64,000 nt of DNA from Phycisphaerae bacterium (GCA_963666835.2 CAXXGO010000001.1:320001-384000), one strand, 5' to 3'; positions 42,079 to 56,786 are shown, counted from the stretch's first letter. Notes: generated by a model not told the origin, from the sequence alone. Numbers and translations are program-made.

Positions 42079-45000
42079 ATGGGCGGGATTATTATGGCGA
42101 GAATGGGTGGGCGGTGTCCGTGGTATGGGGTTCCACACCGGAGAGTGGAAGTCTTGTTGCGAGGGATGGCGTTTCTTGTTGTGGTGGCGCTTATTGCATC
42201 ACCGGCGGCGGCCGACGAACAACGTGCTCCGCAGCCCTGCACGGAAGACGATGTGTCGATTGTCTGCGCGGTCGAGCCGCCACCGCCGGATGCGGAGATG
42301 TGTCTGCGAAGCGCGCTGCCGTTCTACCTTATGGACCTCGAACCGCAGCTGGCGGATCTTCAGTTGCCGCTAGACCCGGAGGATCCGGATCCTGCGACTC
42401 TGAGGTGGTACGATATCGCTACGCAGGAAGAGGGTGACATCCCGCCGGAGGTGGACGAGATCGATGAGACGTTCTTCGATGACGACATGGACGAAGCGGG
42501 GTGTCTGCCGGATGCCTGCGGGGAGCCGTCACGAATGGTATTCGGTCGCGACGACCGCGTGCGCGTTTGGAACACCCTGGCTTACCCCTGGCGGACAATA
42601 GGACGAATGGTAATGACGTTTCCCGGGGGTAGCACTGCTAGCTGCACCGGGGCGCTCGTTGGTCCCCGCCATGTGCTGACGGCCGGGCACTGCGTTCACA
42701 CTGGGGGAAAGGGAGGTTCGTGGGCGACATCGGTGAGTTTCTCGCCGGGGCAAAACGGCGCGGCCATGCCCTTCGGGACACACTTCGCATCGCTTCTGGT
42801 CACATTTCGGGGGTGGACGGATCGGCGATCCCGCAACCACGACATGGCGATATTGGTGTTCCCGGCATGGGACCGTCCCGGCGCCGCGGTTGGCTGGTTT
42901 GGCTACAGCACCGGCGGGGCGAGCGATGTGGGGCGGATCCGCAACATCTCCGGATATCCGGGCGATAAGCCTTGGGGAACACAATGGTGGCACGCCGGGA
43001 AGATCCACCATCGGACAACATACCTGTTGCGTTACCGAATCGACACGGCCGGCGGGCAGAGCGGCTCACCCGTCTGGCGATACACGGGGACCACCCTGGG
43101 GCGTTACATCCGGGCAGTTCACCGCGGCTGGGCCACGATCTGGCGATGGTTCAGATGGCGGAAATACAACGAAGGAGTGCGGATCACGCGCGGGAAGTTC
43201 AATGTCATCAGAAACCTGAAGACCGCTCATCCGTTCGCCGCGGATTCGCCCGGCTATCTGCCCGAGCCTTGCGATATGTGCGGACCGGACTGCAATCAGA
43301 ACGGTGTTCCGGACGAGTGCGATATCGACTGCGCTGGGTTGGGAGGGCTATGCGCAGACGCCCCGACCTGCGGAGGCAGCGCTGATGCAGACACGGATGG
43401 CGTTCCGGATGAATGCGCCAGTGCTTGCTGCCATGCGGATGGGAGCTGTACCATCGAACCCTCGGGGTGGCATTGCCTGGAAGCGGGCGGGGCATACGGC
43501 GGACTTGATTCCACGTGTGCGATATGCGTCGATGCCCCGGCGCCGGGGGCGTGCTGCGATCCGGATACGGGGGATTGCGCAGACGTATTCTCGTGGAATT
43601 GCGCAGGCGTGTTCCATTCTGGTGTCGATTGCAGCGCCGGGGTCTGCGACGTCGGGGCGTGCTGTTTTGGGGACGGCTCCTGCTCGCCTATGGACCCCGG
43701 AAGCTGCATGGACGAGTTTCTGGGCTTCGGTACAACCTGTGACCCGAACTGCTGTCTGCAGTCCAGCACGGGAGCGGATGACTGCGGAGGCGCGGTGGTT
43801 CACGCGATAGCGGTTCCGCCGCTGGGTGATCCTCCGATGAGCGTTACTGTGTCTGGTGACACCACGAATGCGGGATTGGCTCCCGAGACTTGTCCTGCCC
43901 TCGGCGAGGTGTGGTGGGAGGCGTTCTCTGTGGACGCAAATGCGGAGGTCACCGTCGACTTCTGCTGCAGTGATCCGCCGGCCAATGATGTGTCAATCTA
44001 CTTGGCCGAGGGCTGCCCCTGCGCGAATCTGATTGAGGCGGATGAGGCGCCGGACTTGGTCGGCTGTGGCGACGGCAACGGGTCTGTGAAGTTCACCGTG
44101 CCGGCCGGGACATACTACGTTCCGGTGCTGGTGGACCGGGACGAGAATGATGAGATCTTCGGGCATCCGTATCAAATGCATATCTTGGTAGCACATCCGT
44201 TTTACGCGGCGTGTTGTGAGATCGGGAGCGACACGTGCACGGTTACAGACCGAGCAACGTGTGAGGAGTACGGGTATTGGCTTGGCGGCGGTGACGTGCC
44301 CGTTGTGACATGTGCCGCCGACCCGTGTGTCATCGGCGCCTGTTGCATTGGTGACACCTGCGACGATGGACCGGCGTGCGACACGTTAGCGGAGTGCGAG
44401 ACGGTCTGTGGTGGGGTGTTTGTCGGGTATGGCACGTGCGCCGATGATGTATGCACTACCACAGCGAGCTGCGATTATTGTGATGGAAACCTCCGAACCG
44501 GCCCGCTGGTTTCGCCCAGTGACCGAAGTGTCAACCTGCGGGCGGCCGATGATCTCCAGCCGGCGGGTTCCACGATCAGTGCACTATGTTGGGTGGGCCG
44601 CTACGAAGACCTCGATGGCGTTCACGACTGCGGGGAAGACGCGGTGGATGACTTCGTCATACGATTCTATGACGACGCCGGCGGTATGCCGGGAGCGGAG
44701 ATCGGCCCTCCCGGCGGCCAGGCGGTTACCGTTGCCAAAAAGGCGGCGGTGCCGAGTCTGATGGGCGACTGGTTGTACAACGCATCACTCGATGTTCCGC
44801 TTAGTGTGGATCCGGGGAACTGTTATTGGATGGAGATCACGAATGATCTGCAGGTCGGTACGGAGTGTGTCTGGGTGTGGGCAAGTTCCGCCTCGGCCGC
44901 CAACAAATTCAGCCTTCGTGACGCCGACGGTTCCTGGGAAGCCGAGGACGCGGTCGCGCACGACTTGGCCTTCTGTATCGACTGCGGGCTGGACAGTCTG

Positions 45001-46221
45001 GGCTGCGGTGACTTTCTCGGCCATTGTTGTACTTGTTCGGCCTGTCAGGAGAACACGACTCTGATTGAATGCACGTTGACTTACGGCGGGCAGTGGGATC
45101 CGGCGAACGACTGTGGCGGGGCGAGCTGTCCGACCGCGGCGGCCAACGATGACTGCCTCGACGCGATTGACGTTGTGGGAGATCTGGAATCCGGAGTCAG
45201 TATCGCCTTCGACAACCGGTGCGCAACTCGCGACGGGGCGGAAGGAAGTTGCCCGGAGTCGGGCGTCAACTTCACCGGCGATGTCTGGTTCAATTGTTAC
45301 GTCCCGGACAGTGGATTACTCACGGTGTCACAGTGCGACGCCGATTACGACGGCATGCTGGCCGTGTATGGCCCGTTCGGGGACTGCGATGACGCGTGCC
45401 TTACTGTGGAACCCGGATGCCCGCTCGTTGATGATGACATTATCCTCGGATGCGATGACGACGGGTGTTGCAGCGGTTCCGCGATGTGCGGTGGTACGCT
45501 GGCGGACATTCCCGTCGAGGCCGGGGGCTGCTACAAGATCCGGGTGGGCGGTCGAAGCGACCGCGGACGCCCAGGGGGACACGGTACGGTTAGTGTGTCT
45601 CTTGCGCCCGGTCCCCCCCTTCTGGCGCCGGTTCAGGCGCCCCCGCCGGAGGACTGCGTGAAGAACCGGTATATCTCGATTATGTCAGGCAATCCTGGAG
45701 TCGCAGTGGGATTGGAGGTCATGGTCGCTTCCAGTTTGTATTTCCCGGGTTCGGTGGGCGAGACCAAATACGTCGGCGCCATTAACGCTGCCGGCTACTA
45801 TCCGTTGGTTGCTACGCCGAACGTGCAGGTCTGGCCCAACAGCCCGCTGCACGTTTTCGACTGTATGATCCATCCGGCGGCGACTTTCGACGTGCGGGCG
45901 ACCGACGGGATGGGCGTCTTCTCGCCGCCTCTCGTGATCGCCACGATACCAAAGCCGGGCGCGAAGTTCTTCGGAGATTGCGTCGGTCCTTTCATCGGGA
46001 CCTGGTCGTGCCCGGACGGAGTCACGAGCGTCTCCGATATCATGGCCGCTCTGCAGCTGTTTGCGACTGCACCGACCGCTCCGCCGGTTCACTGGGCAGA
46101 CATTCACGATGCGGGGCCGAACAACATCGTTACTATGTCGGACGTCCTGTTGCTGGTGAATGCGTTCAAGGGCGACCCCTACCCGTACAATCCGGGTACT
46201 CCAGCTATTCCGTGTCTGTAG
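42079..46221 (+). CDS. Large secreted V8/trypsin-like serine protease with Cys-rich repeats and dockerin-like tail
   Basis: Signal peptide, VFGRDDR, YPWRTIG, LTAGHC, HDMA, GQSGSP; DCNQNGVPDECD, several GACC modules, ANDDC module. Confidence 0.9.
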   Translation: MGGIIMARMGGRCPWYGVPHRRVEVLLRGMAFLVVVALIASPAAADEQRAPQPCTEDDVSIVCAVEPPPPDAEMCLRSALPFYLMDLEPQLADLQLPLDPEDPDPATLRWYDIATQEEGDIPPEVDEIDETFFDDDMDEAGCLPDACGEPSRMVFGRDDRVRVWNTLAYPWRTIGRMVMTFPGGSTASCTGALVGPRHVLTAGHCVHTGGKGGSWATSVSFSPGQNGAAMPFGTHFASLLVTFRGWTDRRSRNHDMAILVFPAWDRPGAAVGWFGYSTGGASDVGRIRNISGYPGDKPWGTQWWHAGKIHHRTTYLLRYRIDTAGGQSGSPVWRYTGTTLGRYIRAVHRGWATIWRWFRWRKYNEGVRITRGKFNVIRNLKTAHPFAADSPGYLPEPCDMCGPDCNQNGVPDECDIDCAGLGGLCADAPTCGGSADADTDGVPDECASACCHADGSCTIEPSGWHCLEAGGAYGGLDSTCAICVDAPAPGACCDPDTGDCADVFSWNCAGVFHSGVDCSAGVCDVGACCFGDGSCSPMDPGSCMDEFLGFGTTCDPNCCLQSSTGADDCGGAVVHAIAVPPLGDPPMSVTVSGDTTNAGLAPETCPALGEVWWEAFSVDANAEVTVDFCCSDPPANDVSIYLAEGCPCANLIEADEAPDLVGCGDGNGSVKFTVPAGTYYVPVLVDRDENDEIFGHPYQMHILVAHPFYAACCEIGSDTCTVTDRATCEEYGYWLGGGDVPVVTCAADPCVIGACCIGDTCDDGPACDTLAECETVCGGVFVGYGTCADDVCTTTASCDYCDGNLRTGPLVSPSDRSVNLRAADDLQPAGSTISALCWVGRYEDLDGVHDCGEDAVDDFVIRFYDDAGGMPGAEIGPPGGQAVTVAKKAAVPSLMGDWLYNASLDVPLSVDPGNCYWMEITNDLQVGTECVWVWASSASAANKFSLRDADGSWEAEDAVAHDLAFCIDCGLDSLGCGDFLGHCCTCSACQENTTLIECTLTYGGQWDPANDCGGASCPTAAANDDCLDAIDVVGDLESGVSIAFDNRCATRDGAEGSCPESGVNFTGDVWFNCYVPDSGLLTVSQCDADYDGMLAVYGPFGDCDDACLTVEPGCPLVDDDIILGCDDDGCCSGSAMCGGTLADIPVEAGGCYKIRVGGRSDRGRPGGHGTVSVSLAPGPPLLAPVQAPPPEDCVKNRYISIMSGNPGVAVGLEVMVASSLYFPGSVGETKYVGAINAAGYYPLVATPNVQVWPNSPLHVFDCMIHPAATFDVRATDGMGVFSPPLVIATIPKPGAKFFGDCVGPFIGTWSCPDGVTSVSDIMAALQLFATAPTAPPVHWADIHDAGPNNIVTMSDVLLLVNAFKGDPYPYNPGTPAIPCL

Positions 46222-46280: not shown

Positions 46281-46441
46281 TTCGTGGTGTTCCTAAGAGG
46301 GGCGGTGGGCGGTGTCGTCTGCCCGAATCTCGTCGTTTCGGAGTATCTGGTCGTTAGTCATGTTTGGTTCTGCTGTCCTGTTTTTGTCGCGGCAACTGCT
46401 CGAGGTTGTTTTGCGGATGTCGGAATGAAAGGAGCCGCATT

Positions 46442-46630
46442 ATGTTAGGTAAGTCAGTTGTAGCGTCTATCGTCTGCCTGTCTGTCGCGGTTAACGTAGA
46501 CGCAGACCAGTTTCCGAATGGTCCAGGTGATCCCAGTTGTCCGGACGACTTAAGGCAAAATCGCAAAATAGGCAAAATCGGGACTAAAATCGTGGACAGC
46601 CACCTATTTATCAAAATCTATAAAATCTAA
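46442..46630 (+). pseudogene. Probable 5' remnant of a secreted-protein gene running into the stutter array
   Basis: AAGGAG RBS, signal peptide MLGKSVVASIVCLSVAVNVDA, ~17 further codons, then repeat-derived sequence. Confidence 0.5.
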
Positions 46631-46666
46631 AATCGACTAAAATCGGGGACAGCCACCTATTAAAAT
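46557..46666 (+). repeat. Stutter array 1, left part (5'-anchored truncated copies of AAAATCGGGGACAGCCACCTATTTATT)
   Basis: Unit starts at 46557, 46565, 46574, 46586, 46613, 46622, 46629, 46639, 46662; continues at 48211-48231 and 49711-49754. Confidence 0.85.
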
Positions 46667-48210
46667 GGTTCTTCCGCCGAATCTGTGGAAGGATTTCATA
46701 GGTTGAGGTAATCCTCGGCCTCCGGCTCGGGAGCTGTCCGGGGCGGCCCCTTCCGCACCGTCCCCCTCGGCGTCGGCCCTAGTCGGGTGAGACCGACGCC
46801 GAGGGTGACGGAGCTACAGGGGCCTGGAGGCAGCGTTTGGTTTACGTGATGGAACGGGCAGAGGCCGGCTTGTGTCCGGGACAAAAGAAGTGCATCGTTC
46901 GAGAATCCGGTAAATTGGTGTTTGCGAAGACATCAACCCGGAGAAAACGAACGATGCAAGTGAAGACCATCCTCAATCGCGTCCACAAAGTCAAGGGCTT
47001 CGTCTACGGAGACGTTCGATTCCGTGATTCGGATCCCATGACGCTGGAAGTCGAAATCCGGCCGCGACGCGGCAGCCGTCCGTTCTGCTCGGGTTGCGGC
47101 CGCCGAGGCAAGGCCTACGACCGAATGCCGAGACGATCGTTCTCGTTCATTCCGCTGTGGGCCTTGCCGGTTGTGATGCTCTACGCACCCCGCCGCGTCA
47201 AGTGCGAGGATTGCGGCGTGAAGGTCGAACTGTTGCCTTGGGCGGACGGTAAGAAGCGAATCACCAACGCTCACGCGCTGTTCCTCGCTCGGTGGGCGCG
47301 CCGCCTGAGTTGGAAAGAGGTGGCCACGGTGTTCAAGACCAGCTGGGACACGGTCTACCGCTCGGTTGCCTGGGTCGTCGAATACGGCCTGAAACACCGG
47401 GATTTGGACAACGTCGCCGCCATCGGCGTCGATGAGATTCAGTTCCAAAAAGGACATCGGTATCTGACGTTGGTCTACCAGGTTGAGAACTCGTGCCGGC
47501 GTCTGCTGTGGATCGGGCAGGATCGCACCGCCAAGAGCTTCCTGCGTTTCTTTCGCATGATGGGCAAGCCGCGATCAGCCGGAATCCGTTACGTCTGCAG
47601 CGATATGTGGCAGCCCTACCTGCGCGTGATCCGGAAGAAGATCCCCGACGCGATTCACATTCTGGATCGGTTCCACATCGTGGCCAGGCTGAACAAGGCG
47701 GTTGACGAGGTCCGGGCGGCCGAGGCGAAGGAACTGGCACGCGAAGGTTTCGACCCGGTGCTGAAGCACAGCCGGTGGTGCCTGCTGAAGCGTCCCGCGA
47801 ACCTGACGAACAAACAGGGAGCCAAGCTCAGCGAACTGATGCGATACAACCTCAAGAGCATCCGGGCCTACCTGCTCAAGGACAGCTTCCAGGCGCTCTG
47901 GGATTACGAGTCATACCACTGGGCAGGACGATTTCTGAAGGGGTGGATTCAACGGGCCATGCGCAGCCGGCTTGAACCGATTAAGAAAGTCGCGCGCAGT
48001 CTGCGTGCTCATGAGAACCTGATCTTGAATTGGTTTGCGGCGAGAAAGCAGTATTCGTCCGGGATCGTGGAGGGACTCAACAACAAGGTCAAACTGACCA
48101 TCAGAAGAGCCTACGGCTTTCGAGAGCTAAAGGCCGCGGAAGTCGCCCTATATCACGCACTTGGCAAACTACCCGAACCGAAAATCCACCACAAATTCTG
48201 CTGAGGAGGC
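46667..48210 (+). mobile_element. ISL3-family insertion sequence (1544 bp)
   Basis: Imperfect TIR GGTTCTTCCGCCGAATCTGTGG / CCACAAATTCTGCTGAGGAGGC; 8-bp target duplication ATTAAAAT (46659-46666, 48211-48218). Confidence 0.92.
46954..48204 (+). CDS. ISL3 family transposase
   Basis: Zn finger CSGC..CEDC, IGVDE, CSDMW, DRFHIV, EGLNNKVK..RRAYGFR. Confidence 0.95.
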   Translation: MQVKTILNRVHKVKGFVYGDVRFRDSDPMTLEVEIRPRRGSRPFCSGCGRRGKAYDRMPRRSFSFIPLWALPVVMLYAPRRVKCEDCGVKVELLPWADGKKRITNAHALFLARWARRLSWKEVATVFKTSWDTVYRSVAWVVEYGLKHRDLDNVAAIGVDEIQFQKGHRYLTLVYQVENSCRRLLWIGQDRTAKSFLRFFRMMGKPRSAGIRYVCSDMWQPYLRVIRKKIPDAIHILDRFHIVARLNKAVDEVRAAEAKELAREGFDPVLKHSRWCLLKRPANLTNKQGAKLSELMRYNLKSIRAYLLKDSFQALWDYESYHWAGRFLKGWIQRAMRSRLEPIKKVARSLRAHENLILNWFAARKQYSSGIVEGLNNKVKLTIRRAYGFRELKAAEVALYHALGKLPEPKIHHKFC

Positions 48211-48231
48211 ATTAAAATCGGGGACAGCCAC

Positions 48232-49710
48232 CAATAGTGTTCGGCACTCAGATTGCGTTTGATTGACGATACCGTCAAGCCCCGCTTCGGCACGACAAAT
48301 TCGCGCCAGGCTTTGCTTGCGCTCGCGCCGCCGGTCGCGCATAATCGGGTCCATGGCGGGAAGGCGCAAGAAGAAGATCGAGGAGCCTGACTTGAGGGGC
48401 TTCAAGCACTTCAAGTTCCTCAACAGGATTCTGGAGCGGCTGCACGATACGGCGTGTGAACGGGATCGGGCCGGCAACCGCGATTTGCACTACGACCAGT
48501 ACGCCGCACTCATCCTGCTGTATTTCTTCAACCCGATCGTGACGAGCCTGCGCGGGATCCAGCAGACCAGCGAACTCAAGAAAGTTCAAAAGAATCTCGG
48601 GTGCTCGAGAGCCTCACTCGGTTCACTCTCCGAAGCGGCTCGCGTGTTTGACGCCGACCTGCTTCGCGGCATCATCCAAGAGGTGGTCGACGAACTGCCG
48701 GCCCTTGCGGGTAACCGGGAATTCAAGGACATCCGTGGCATTATCACGCTGATCGACGGAACTGTGTTATCCGCCCTTCCCAAGCTCGTGCAAGCGATGT
48801 GGAGCGATGTGAAGGGTGCGCATGGCCTCAAACTGCACACGCACTTCGAGTTGCTCAAGGGGGTGCCAACCCGCATGGACCTCACGGACGGCGATGGCAA
48901 CGAACGGGCTGCGCTCCAAAGAAGCCTACTGCCCGATCGGGTGTACGTGATGGATCGAGGGTACGCCAAGTTCGAGCTGTTCGCCGACATTCTTAAGGTG
49001 AAGTCCTCTTTCGTGTGCCGCGTCCGTGACAACAGCGTGTACGAGGTTCTTGAGGACAGGACCCCGTCCTCAGCGGACCACGTGGCCAAGGCCGGCGAAG
49101 TTCAAAGCGATCTAACTGTTCGATTCACTGGCGGCCAGGCCGCCAGAGCTGGGCTGAATCAGCCCCTGCGTCTGGTCAAGATCGTGTGCAACCCCCACCG
49201 GCACACCCACAAGAACGGGCGAGGCGGCCCCGAACAGGGCGAAGTGCTTCTGGTGGCTACCGACATCATGGACGTCGAGCCGGAAGTCATCGCTCTGATC
49301 TACAAGAACCGCTGGGCAGTCGAGACGTTTTTTCGTTTTTTCAAGCACATACTGGGCTGTCGACATCTGTTGAGCCACTGCGAGAATGGAATCGAGATAC
49401 AGACTTATGTCGCGATCATCGCATGCTTGTTGATCGCGCTATGGACGGGGCGAAAGCCGACTCTTCGCACGTACGAAATGCTCTGCTTCCACATGAGCGG
49501 CCTGGCGGACGATGAGGAGTTGCTCGCCCACATCGAAAAACTGAAACCACAAGCATAGCCGCGTCGTGGCGCCCGCACGGAACCGGCCGCTGCGCATGCG
49601 CGGATTTCTCTCGGTACGCTCCTCCAAAAGACGCCCACTACCGAAACAAGGCCGCGCCCCTCCTCTGCGACATCCATCGCCATACGCAATCTGAGTGCCG
49701 AACACTATTG
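48232..49710 (+). mobile_element. IS4-family insertion sequence (1479 bp)
   Basis: Perfect 27-bp TIR CAATAGTGTTCGGCACTCAGATTGCGT; 10-bp target duplication GGACAGCCAC (48222-48231, 49711-49720). Confidence 0.95.
48353..49558 (+). CDS. IS4 family transposase
   Basis: LIDGT, KLH, MDRGY, YREK motif YKNRWAVETFFRFFK. Confidence 0.95.
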   Translation: MAGRRKKKIEEPDLRGFKHFKFLNRILERLHDTACERDRAGNRDLHYDQYAALILLYFFNPIVTSLRGIQQTSELKKVQKNLGCSRASLGSLSEAARVFDADLLRGIIQEVVDELPALAGNREFKDIRGIITLIDGTVLSALPKLVQAMWSDVKGAHGLKLHTHFELLKGVPTRMDLTDGDGNERAALQRSLLPDRVYVMDRGYAKFELFADILKVKSSFVCRVRDNSVYEVLEDRTPSSADHVAKAGEVQSDLTVRFTGGQAARAGLNQPLRLVKIVCNPHRHTHKNGRGGPEQGEVLLVATDIMDVEPEVIALIYKNRWAVETFFRFFKHILGCRHLLSHCENGIEIQTYVAIIACLLIALWTGRKPTLRTYEMLCFHMSGLADDEELLAHIEKLKPQA

Positions 49711-49771
49711 GGACAGCCACCTATTAAAATCGGGGACAGCCACCTATTTATTGACACCGCTTATGGGCCAA

Positions 49772-50094
49772 GTGGGTCGGGTTCTGCCCAATGGTACTAA
49801 CCTCGTCAGGTTGCCATGCGGGCAACCGTCCCGAAGGGACGGAGGCGTGTAGCCACGGGTGGAGCGAAGCGGAACCCGTGGGTGAGATCGCTCCCCACGT
49901 GGTCCCGCCCCGAAGGGCCGGCGGACGGTTTCAGGGATCGCCCGAATAGCCACAGACCGCGGACGGCAATCGGCTTCGGAGGGTTCGCTCCGCGGACCGG
50001 TTTGCGGCCGGGTACTGAAGCAAACGGTCCGCACAGCGGACCCTCTCTCGTTTCGTCTGCCAAGGTTAGTACCATTGGGCTGAGCCCGACCTAC
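49772..50094. repeat. REPIN-like element E, second copy (inverted relative to 11873-12268)
   Basis: Termini GTGGGTCGGGTTCTGCCCAATGGTACTAACCT / AGGTTAGTACCATTGGGCTGAGCCCGACCTAC. Confidence 0.8.
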
Positions 50095-50165
50095 TCAGAA
50101 TGGTGCCCGAACAGGGCGTTCGGCGGTCTGACCGCAACGTCCCCGGAGCCCCCTCGTGACGTTCG

Positions 50166-55454: not shown

Positions 55455-55650
55455 GGGGAAAACCCGGGGGGAAAACCCAGCGACGGGAAAACCCGGGGAA
55501 AACCCGGGACAGTCACCTATTTATGGGGGAAAACCCGGGACTAAAACCCGGGACAGTCACAATAGTGTTCGGCACTCAGATTGCGTATGGCGATGGATGC
55601 CGCAGGGGAAAACCCGGGGGGAAAACCCGGGACAGTCACCTATTTATTGA
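55455..55650 (+). repeat. Stutter array 2 (5'-anchored truncated copies of GGGGAAAACCCGGGACAGTCACCTATTTATTGA)
   Basis: Eight AAAACCC-anchored units of variable length, the last one full-length. Confidence 0.85.
55560..55609 (-). mobile_element. Solo right end of the IS4 element
   Basis: CAATAGTGTTCGGCACTCAGATTGCGTATGGCGATGGATG is the reverse complement of 49671-49710. Confidence 0.9.
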
Positions 55651-55659
55651 GGGCAACCA

Positions 55660-56786
55660 CCGGAACTTCTTGGAGCATCGAAGTGTCGCTCCTGGCGGGG
55701 CTCGGGTTGACTTACGACGCGATCCCGCGGCTGACGCCGCGGGCTAGGCAGAGCTGCCGTCCTGACGGGCTGGCCCCGCGAGCCACGCGGGTGGCACATC
55801 TTCGCGCAACTCAAGCCACTGCAGCCCTAATGGCAGGTCTCGTACCTCGACCGTGCCCTACACCCGCCGACGACGCCCTACGTCGGGTGCCACCAAGGTG
55901 TCATACGACGAGCTGTTGACCCGTGGAGCGCGCCGCGCCGCGGGCTTCCACGCAACCGAGCCGTAGTCGCCCCCCATCGTTCATGGCCACGCAAGCGTGG
56001 GCCATGGCACCCGGCAACCGAAAGGGCGGATCTGGAAACCCTCCACCTAAAAGCGCGCGCGCCCGAGTTCTATCCCGACCCCGGCAGGTCTCGTACCTCG
56101 ACCGTGCCCTACACCCGCCAACTGTAGCCGGCTGTCGATCTCGATTCTCCAGCCCGAAGGGCTCAGATGAAGTAGCCGGGGGCAAGTCCGCCATTGGCGG
56201 ACGCCGCCCCCGGACCCGATCCCCGCAACCAGCGTCACCCCGGTAGGGGTCAAATGCCTTGGGCGAATGCGTTTCGCGAGTCCGCCATGTCTGTCGACGC
56301 ATTCTCAACAAGGCCGGATAGCGGAAACAGACGCGCGGTTCATCGACGCCGTCTCTTTCACCCTTCAGGGTGATTGGGGGTGTTGGGCTCGCACCCGGGG
56401 GCGGCGGCCGCTGCGCGGCCTTGCCCCCGGCTACTATCTTATAGGCTTTCAGCCTGAACACCGAGCGGGTCTGCAGCTTGTTACGCTGGGCCTTGCCCCC
56501 GGCTACTATCTTGCAGGCTTTCAGCCTGAACACGTAGCCGGCTTGACGCCTTTCACTGAGAAAGAAGCCGCGGCCTTTAGCTTGCCACGCTGGGGAATGG
56601 GGCGCCGGCGAGTCGGACGGATACGCTCGGCTTGCCCGGCAAAGATGTGTAGAACAAGGAGGAGCTTGTCCCTGGCGTAAAGGCGCTGTGTCTCTATCAC
56701 GTCACCCACAAGGGCGTCACCCACAAGGGGTGACGCTACAGTAAGTCACGCCCGTTTATGCGAACGTCATGAGTAATCCGGGTTAG
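55660..56786. repeat. REP/REPIN mosaic
   Basis: ~200-bp homolog of 14021-14222; main REP at 55832, 56083; hairpin 55982-56012; fold-back element 56152-56460 with 72-bp-period duplicated end; element H copy ~56660-56786. Confidence 0.8.

Follow-up and report, generated by a model that had tools for sequence, protein, structure and literature searches.

The TIRtron was described by Di Nocera, De Gregorio and Rocco (2013, PMC3733652) as a RAYT-like Y1 gene framed by GGGGWSAS terminal inverted repeats (TIRs). In the text of Quentin et al. (2018, PMC6006769) its transposase, TIRYT, is equated with TnpA-Y1 subclass 2.1, the largest RAYT-like group (14.9% of species), which is characterized by the motifs NHVH, W[EQ] and YIELNP (NHxH / WQ / YxExNP), a median length of 238 aa and no GTAG REPs; it corresponds to RAYT group 1 of Bertels et al. 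(2017, PMC5581495). For the amplification of BIMEs, the text of Ton-Hoang et al. (2012, PMC3333891) gives a model in which a nick, priming from the 3′-OH and rejoining to the phosphotyrosine produce tandem units. The TnpA-REP enzymes assayed cut at C^T or C^A, and that of E. coli needs an attacking 3′ C, according to the text of PMC8266576. In the IS4 family, target duplications of about 10 bp and, in some members, a strong specificity for the target arms are reported in the text of De Palmenaer et al. (2008, PMC2266710). A search of literature listings, with subscription texts, figures and supplements outside its scope, returned two works that use the names TIRtron or TIRYT, nothing on polarised truncated TIR copies and no biochemical study of subclass 2.1.

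The locus studied here belongs to a Phycisphaerae bacterium and lies in a window of 64,000 nucleotides (the whole stretch of DNA that was analysed). Array 1 consists of ten units at 46557-49754, interrupted by one ISL3 and one IS4 element (Table 1). A sequence-only reading had held that ten units remain once both IS elements and their target duplications are removed, and exactly those ten were recovered. The units, of 7-29 bp (8, 9, 12, 27, 9, 7 and 10 bp, in order, for units 1 to 7), are nested prefixes without spacers, and TRF finds only fragments of 2-3 copies with periods of 8, 10, 12 and 16; with a varying period and no spacers, the array is neither a fixed-period VNTR nor a CRISPR, as had been stated. 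The core 17-mer has 7 matches in the window at ≤3 mismatches against 0.20 expected, and 52 matches genome-wide at ≤2 mismatches, so that TIRs are dispersed as a repeat family. Because all 7 window matches lie on the + strand, the motif of array 1 is a solo end, without an inverted partner in the window. The hexamer that follows the TIR of unit 10 is placed as it is in TIRtron left ends; a full promoter was looked for at this point and not found. Since the ISL3 target spans the junction between units 8 and 9, array 1 is older in the cell than the ISL3 insertion.

Table 1. Features of arrays 1 and 2 (positions in the window) and of related elements on contig C6
Feature	Position	Strand	Description
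Units 1-7 of array 1	46557..46638	+	Short or degenerate 5′-anchored copies of the TIR tip
Unit 8 (copy of the terminal TIR, 23 bp) with the opening 5 bp of unit 9	46639..46666	+	Perfect prefix copies
ISL3-family IS, 1544 bp, 8-bp target duplication	46667..48210	+	Passenger
Target duplication of ISL3 and middle of unit 9	48211..48231	+	
IS4-family IS, 1479 bp, 10-bp duplication	48232..49710	+	In the core of unit 9
Target duplication of IS4 and end of unit 9	49711..49725	+	
Unit 10	49726..49756	+	Full terminal TIR, dyad centre 49738, then TTGACA hexamer
Array 2	55459..55650	+	Same TIR family, 8 units
Internally deleted TIRtron-A derivatives	G000 C6:566420-572675, 1424792-1425136, 2263302-2263644		

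The stutter pattern in array 1 is real. Short-read contigs (Logan contigs were used for the comparison) match units 1-8 and 10 exactly: in run X1, which may be the source sample, one contig covers 45600-46694 and a second one 49683-49872, both with 0 differences, and a contig of run X4, which comes from a different sample of that study, likewise shows 0 differences over 46326-46635. An assembly or sequencing artefact would have in its favour that no single contig covers the entire array; the exact reproduction of the units in two samples, the IS target duplication bridging a unit junction and the occurrence of the same pattern in many independent assemblies reduce that explanation to a practically negligible one. 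The joints of array 2 are also seen in Logan contigs, where they may stem from other TIR copies.

Upstream of array 1 the window encodes a secreted trypsin-like protease of 1380 aa with cysteine-rich repeats (42079-46221). At 46442-46558 a signal-peptide-like frame of 39 codons runs into the array and may be a gene that an outer deletion has truncated; since the frame has no paralog in the genome and only 2 weak matches in 60 family genomes (E 0.001-0.007), an outer deletion at array 1 is unproven. Hairpin repeats, some of them REP-like of the GTAG type, lie just inside both arrays (49767-50095 and 55830-56560) and are very numerous in the genome.

Judged by its sequence, the motif of the arrays is the TIR of a TIRtron, an element of a kind already described. 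The assignment follows from the fit of the repeat to GGGGWSAS: units 8-10 of the window and family A have GGGGACAG in many copies, family B has GGGGACAC, and family C deviates at one position. That no candidate enzyme is encoded in the window had been noted from the start, and the intact transposase gene sits on contig C6 (G000 C6:1415k), where a Y1 gene of 238 aa stands between two copies of the motif in inverted orientation; the element, TIRtron-A, measures 796 bp and has TIRs at both ends. The proposed inspection for a gene beside the motif thus led to a Y1 transposase. Similar TIRs lie next to homologues in six relatives (L009-L014), in some of them at one end only, and the TIR is present in many phyla (at least 133 loci). 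The TIRYT homologues that bear a source name come mostly from Planctomycetota, an enzyme of 98% identity (P0002) is known, and no relative was found in viral contigs with the one query used. As the window TIR differs from the TIRs at the TIRYT gene by one core base, a lost relative may have been the acting enzyme. The TIR motif is recognizable as a degenerate dyad. The TIR copy at the 3′ end of the gene folds (z −3.45), the window copy has a fold no better than that of shuffles (z −1.04), and the TIR lacks GTAG; the dyad is a correction to the earlier statement that the repeat is not a palindromic REP.

The TIRYT of this genome probably belongs to subclass 2.1. PF01797 has 9 matches in the genome, the TIRYT gene being above the cut-off, and it is the only Pfam domain listed for the relatives of the protein; against NCBIfam NF047646 the score of 66.8 falls under the cut-off of 80. 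The motifs NHLH, WQ and YVERNP and the length of 238 aa are similar to the subclass 2.1 signature, not letter for letter, and across 114 sequences H60 and H62 are invariant and Y119 is kept at ≥90%. The predicted structure (pLDDT 89) finds its best match in 4ER8 (E. coli TnpA-REP), followed by the TnpA of IS608 and ISDra2, and ends in a short helical C-terminal tail with helices at 157-207. Two more TIRYT genes are present in the genome, each with its own TIR family (B and C).

Some further observations were made on these elements. Internally deleted derivatives of TIRtron-A, of 200-500 bp, keep both TIRs at several loci, with no obvious target duplication. A family-B TIRtron (L002, G000 C6:1520200-1521150) is stuttered at both ends, and its outer units contain GC-rich inserts that prefix copying does not explain. 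The distribution of TIRs is uneven, with most of them on C6 and none on the 746-kb contig C3. A Y1-like domain at G000 C6:2222173-2222388 lies in frame within a 997-aa open frame, by eye methyltransferase-like (DNA). Other hairpin-flanked Y1 genes (G000 C1:1689714, 801499 and 288162; C6:345699), which are of an IS200-like type (subclass 1.2 by motif) and of a REP-associated type, are candidates for the remaining repeat families of the genome.

Duplication at the TIRs is one-sided. The polarity test assumed no anchor; it counted those perfect tandem duplications whose junction lay 11-18 nt upstream of the dyad centre. In this genome, outer-edge duplications were present in 12/36 cores of family A, 3/9 of family B and 3/40 of family C; the mirror position gave 0 duplications in the three families, and random sites 0/400. 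In family C, stutter is rare in spite of an intact gene and 40 cores. In other genomes, where counts are descriptive because the genomes are related and a sample, 29 of the 147 cores were duplicated at the outer edge, with a peak at −15 to −11, against 0/147 at the mirror under the strict test. A loose mirror control, in which any repeated 6-mer counts, gave 0/36 in this genome and 18/134 in the others; we suspect that the latter matches come from nearby inverted partner TIRs. When genome and relatives were searched for the motif, as the sequence-only reading had advised, truncation arrays were found only on its 5′ side.

The common 5′ start claimed for the units is confirmed as an anchoring, not as a single base, since starts fall in a zone of about 7 nt. 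Counted from the dyad centre, positions −11 to −17 hold 63/64 of the start weight (the method ranges from −11 to −19), and copies begin 0-6 nt outside the A-tract of the TIR. Their ends are variable: 46/64 of the end weight lies at −7 to −3, in the G-run, followed by a tail, ends below −7 being invisible to the method. Copies range from 6 to 356 bp. Ten long ones, with 40-354 matched bases, begin at TIR heads; the left end of the transposase element itself carries units of 80, 51 and 310 bp, one long copy includes the first ~80 codons of the transposase, and long units reproduce the start of the local DNA downstream. A search for paralogous flanks (85 queried, 19 with a paralog) yielded 9 informative family-A rows from 8 arrays, in which the similarity to the paralog breaks off 1-5 nt outside the head, the two sequences differing from that point; hence, the A-tract is part of the element.

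Junctions without microhomology number 20/64, fewer than in the shuffled null (30.9; p about 0.005), so that pairing of 1-2 nt helps, which would also suit template switching. The ambiguity of the junction is 0 or 1 nt in 46 of the 64 events. No dinucleotide is shared by the 20 unambiguous junctions, which have 11 different ones at their starts and 8 at their ends; with the junction taken as proxy for the cut, C^T occurs once and C^A twice among these starts. Arm pairing was not linked to stutter (Fisher p 0.14 and 0.62), and outer-arm pairing reaches fewer than 5/6 bases in 49 of 54 stuttered cores. A dependence of stutter on a hairpin was rejected for lack of such a link.

The order of the units was analysed with a sequential-copy model, in which each unit repeats the beginning of the terminal TIR together with the 0-8 flank bases in front of it. 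Perfect fits were obtained for 22/35 units in family A, 10/23 in family B and 48/84 in other genomes, with shuffled-flank means of 3.8, 3.8 and 18.6, respectively; misfits were 13/35, 13/23 and 36/84, and 20 more units are one base off the model. In array 1, four of the nine outer units are perfect (1, 6, 8 and 9) and five imperfect, with one mismatch in units 2 and 7, two in unit 4 and three in units 3 and 5. Outer units are closer to the terminal TIR than to their neighbour in other genomes (14 vs 2) and in family B (4 vs 1), and the inner-template test was unsupported in family A of this genome (4 vs 5).

The two IS elements differ in their relation to TIRs. ISL3 has three other full copies in the genome, none of them in TIRs, whereas all four full copies of IS4 and one end remnant lie inside TIRs, two of family A and three of family C. 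A survey of 80 metagenomic relatives of the IS4, 74 of them with at least one end, gave 121 distinct ends (L171-L279), and 104 of these lie directly beside a GGWC or GWCC target, with the spacing that was expected and an A-tract further out (chance expectation 4.4). The IS4 of the window can thus be placed in a clade that targets TIR-like sites of several families. A matching 9-bp duplication was found at only 12 of the 50 IS4 loci with both ends, most of the two-ended loci having unmatched flanks. Unit 6 of array 2 contains a 50-bp piece of an IS4 end (55560-55609) that breaks off where the following unit has its head; the remnant shares its base variant with the other IS4 copies and not with the one in array 1. 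It reads most simply as a deletion anchored in the same zone.

We propose, as the reading that we hold to be fairly probable, that array 1 represents the outer tip of a solo TIRtron end and owes its length to TIRYT, an HUH/Y1 enzyme, acting repeatedly in trans by nicking, copying and rejoining. The nick, the priming, the variable synthesis and the rejoining are steps that we infer. TIRYT would bind the core of the TIR and nick the strand in the zone just outside it, its tyrosine remaining linked to the 5′ end of the TIR. The 3′-OH of the flank would then prime strand-displacement synthesis by the host polymerase into the TIR, which would usually halt once 6-15 nt had been added, in the G-run, and would occasionally reach ~350 nt. 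Joining of the new 3′ end to the 5′ end of the TIR by TIRYT would leave a truncated copy beside the working TIR, and each new copy would push the older ones outward. Were the TIR joined to a 3′ end lying further upstream than the nick, flank would be deleted instead. IS4 and ISL3 would have arrived later, as passengers. The sequence-only reading had attributed the array to repeated enzymatic events at one defined cut site and named HUH/RAYT nicking among its candidates; that candidate is strengthened by the intact Y1 gene framed by the motif, by the arrays lying only 5′ of the motif and by the fit of nicking, copying and rejoining to most units, while 'one defined site' proved too tight. Several results weigh against the proposal: the imperfect units, the unsupported inner-template test in family A, the shortage of junctions without microhomology, the absence of the C^T or C^A rule of the enzymes assayed, the rare stutter of family C and the one-base difference between the window TIR and the TIRs at the gene. 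A search for an uninterrupted allele of the array 1 locus gave none.

Other explanations share part of this evidence. The enzyme might make two cuts and then join them, one cut falling at the tip in one DNA copy and the other on the sister or new strand, where its position would vary independently of the sequence; the fixed end could in that case be a bottom-strand 3′-OH, and the variable cut would correspond to the second cleavage of the BIME model. Duplications, deletions and one-sided junctions would be explained equally well, and E. coli TnpA-REP cuts over >400 nt around REP and joins strands in vitro according to the text of PMC3333891. Two cuts at one dinucleotide, however, would produce an ambiguity of ≥2 nt, more than the 0 or 1 nt of most events, and the enzyme would have to lack a sequence rule at both cuts, which makes this alternative rather improbable. 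A non-catalytic role is also conceivable, with bound TIRYT or the structure of the TIR stalling replication as a roadblock and the host switching or slipping with 1-2 nt of microhomology. The enrichment of such microhomology and the concentration of end weight at −7 to −3 agree with it, and identical re-copies (units 8 and 9; five 15-mers at C6:63108) could arise by slippage after a first copy. Nevertheless, a stall would fix the end of the copy, when it is the start that is fixed and ends extend out to +350; the pattern is one-sided although the motif is a dyad; and a stall at a TIR structure is at odds with the poor pairing of the outer arms in stuttered cores, which shows that a hairpin is unnecessary. 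We consider the roadblock unlikely.

Footprints of serial insertion and excision, left either by complete TIRtrons or by the IS4 that targets TIRs, had been another candidate of the sequence-only reading and would be in keeping with the internally deleted TIRtron derivatives at several loci and with the landing of IS4 in TIRs. They are unsupported and, in our opinion, very unlikely: IS4 makes its duplication of 9-10 bp inside the core and not at the tip, family C stutters rarely in spite of holding three of the four full IS4 copies, and long units have the local downstream origin that local copying predicts. A staggered cut followed by end-joining was discarded, as no Ku was found in the genome (92% complete).

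If TIRYT acts as we propose, by nicking, copying and rejoining, the stutter probably marks where and how it cuts. What array 1 adds to the described element is a quantified start zone, a length range, the absence of a dinucleotide or hairpin rule and a witness of deletion. The concrete prediction is a cut zone at −11 to −17 from the dyad centre, on one side only, with no dinucleotide rule and with products of 6-350 bp. Such an enzyme would be a nickase-ligase writing local duplications at a 23-bp site, under rules unlike those of IS608 TnpA and E. coli TnpA-REP. More tentatively, and with doubts prevailing, TIRYTs in general might be one-ended HUH editors that nick by distance close outside a TIR, with neither hairpin nor dinucleotide rule, and join its 5′ end to nearly any free 3′ end, so that TIRs would generate duplications and deletions. 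The arrays would then be ordered records of successive events, and TIRs would be site-directed makers of duplications (6 to 350+ bp) and of flank deletions, stable enough for a dedicated IS4 clade to live on them.

The locus resembles the TIRtrons of the text of PMC3733652 in that TIRs occur as singles, dimers and clusters and in that several families coexist in one genome. That text, taken apart from figures and supplements, mentions dimers and clusters but not 5′-anchored truncated copies, and the junction zone, the long prefix duplications and the IS4 targeting are features found here and not in it. A helix-turn-helix tail is given for the TIRYT examples in the text of PMC6006769, whereas here PF01797 is the only Pfam domain and the model has a short helical tail. 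The IS4 of the window shares the size of the target duplication and the arm specificity with the subgroups IS4 and IS4Sa of PMC2266710; its preferred target is TIRtron-TIR-like, and the text of that paper does not tie specificity to such repeats. With the REPtron, as presented in the texts of Corneloup et al. (2021, PMC8266576) and PMC3333891, TIRYT shares the fold, 4ER8 being its best match, and would share the chemistry of nicking, priming and rejoining. Unlike the REPtron, the TIR has no GTAG foot, no hairpin requirement and no C^T rule, and its units are truncated variably, REPtron units in those texts being whole BIMEs. The scheme proposed here would thus be the BIME amplification model, as set out in the text of PMC3333891, minus the second sequence-specific cut.
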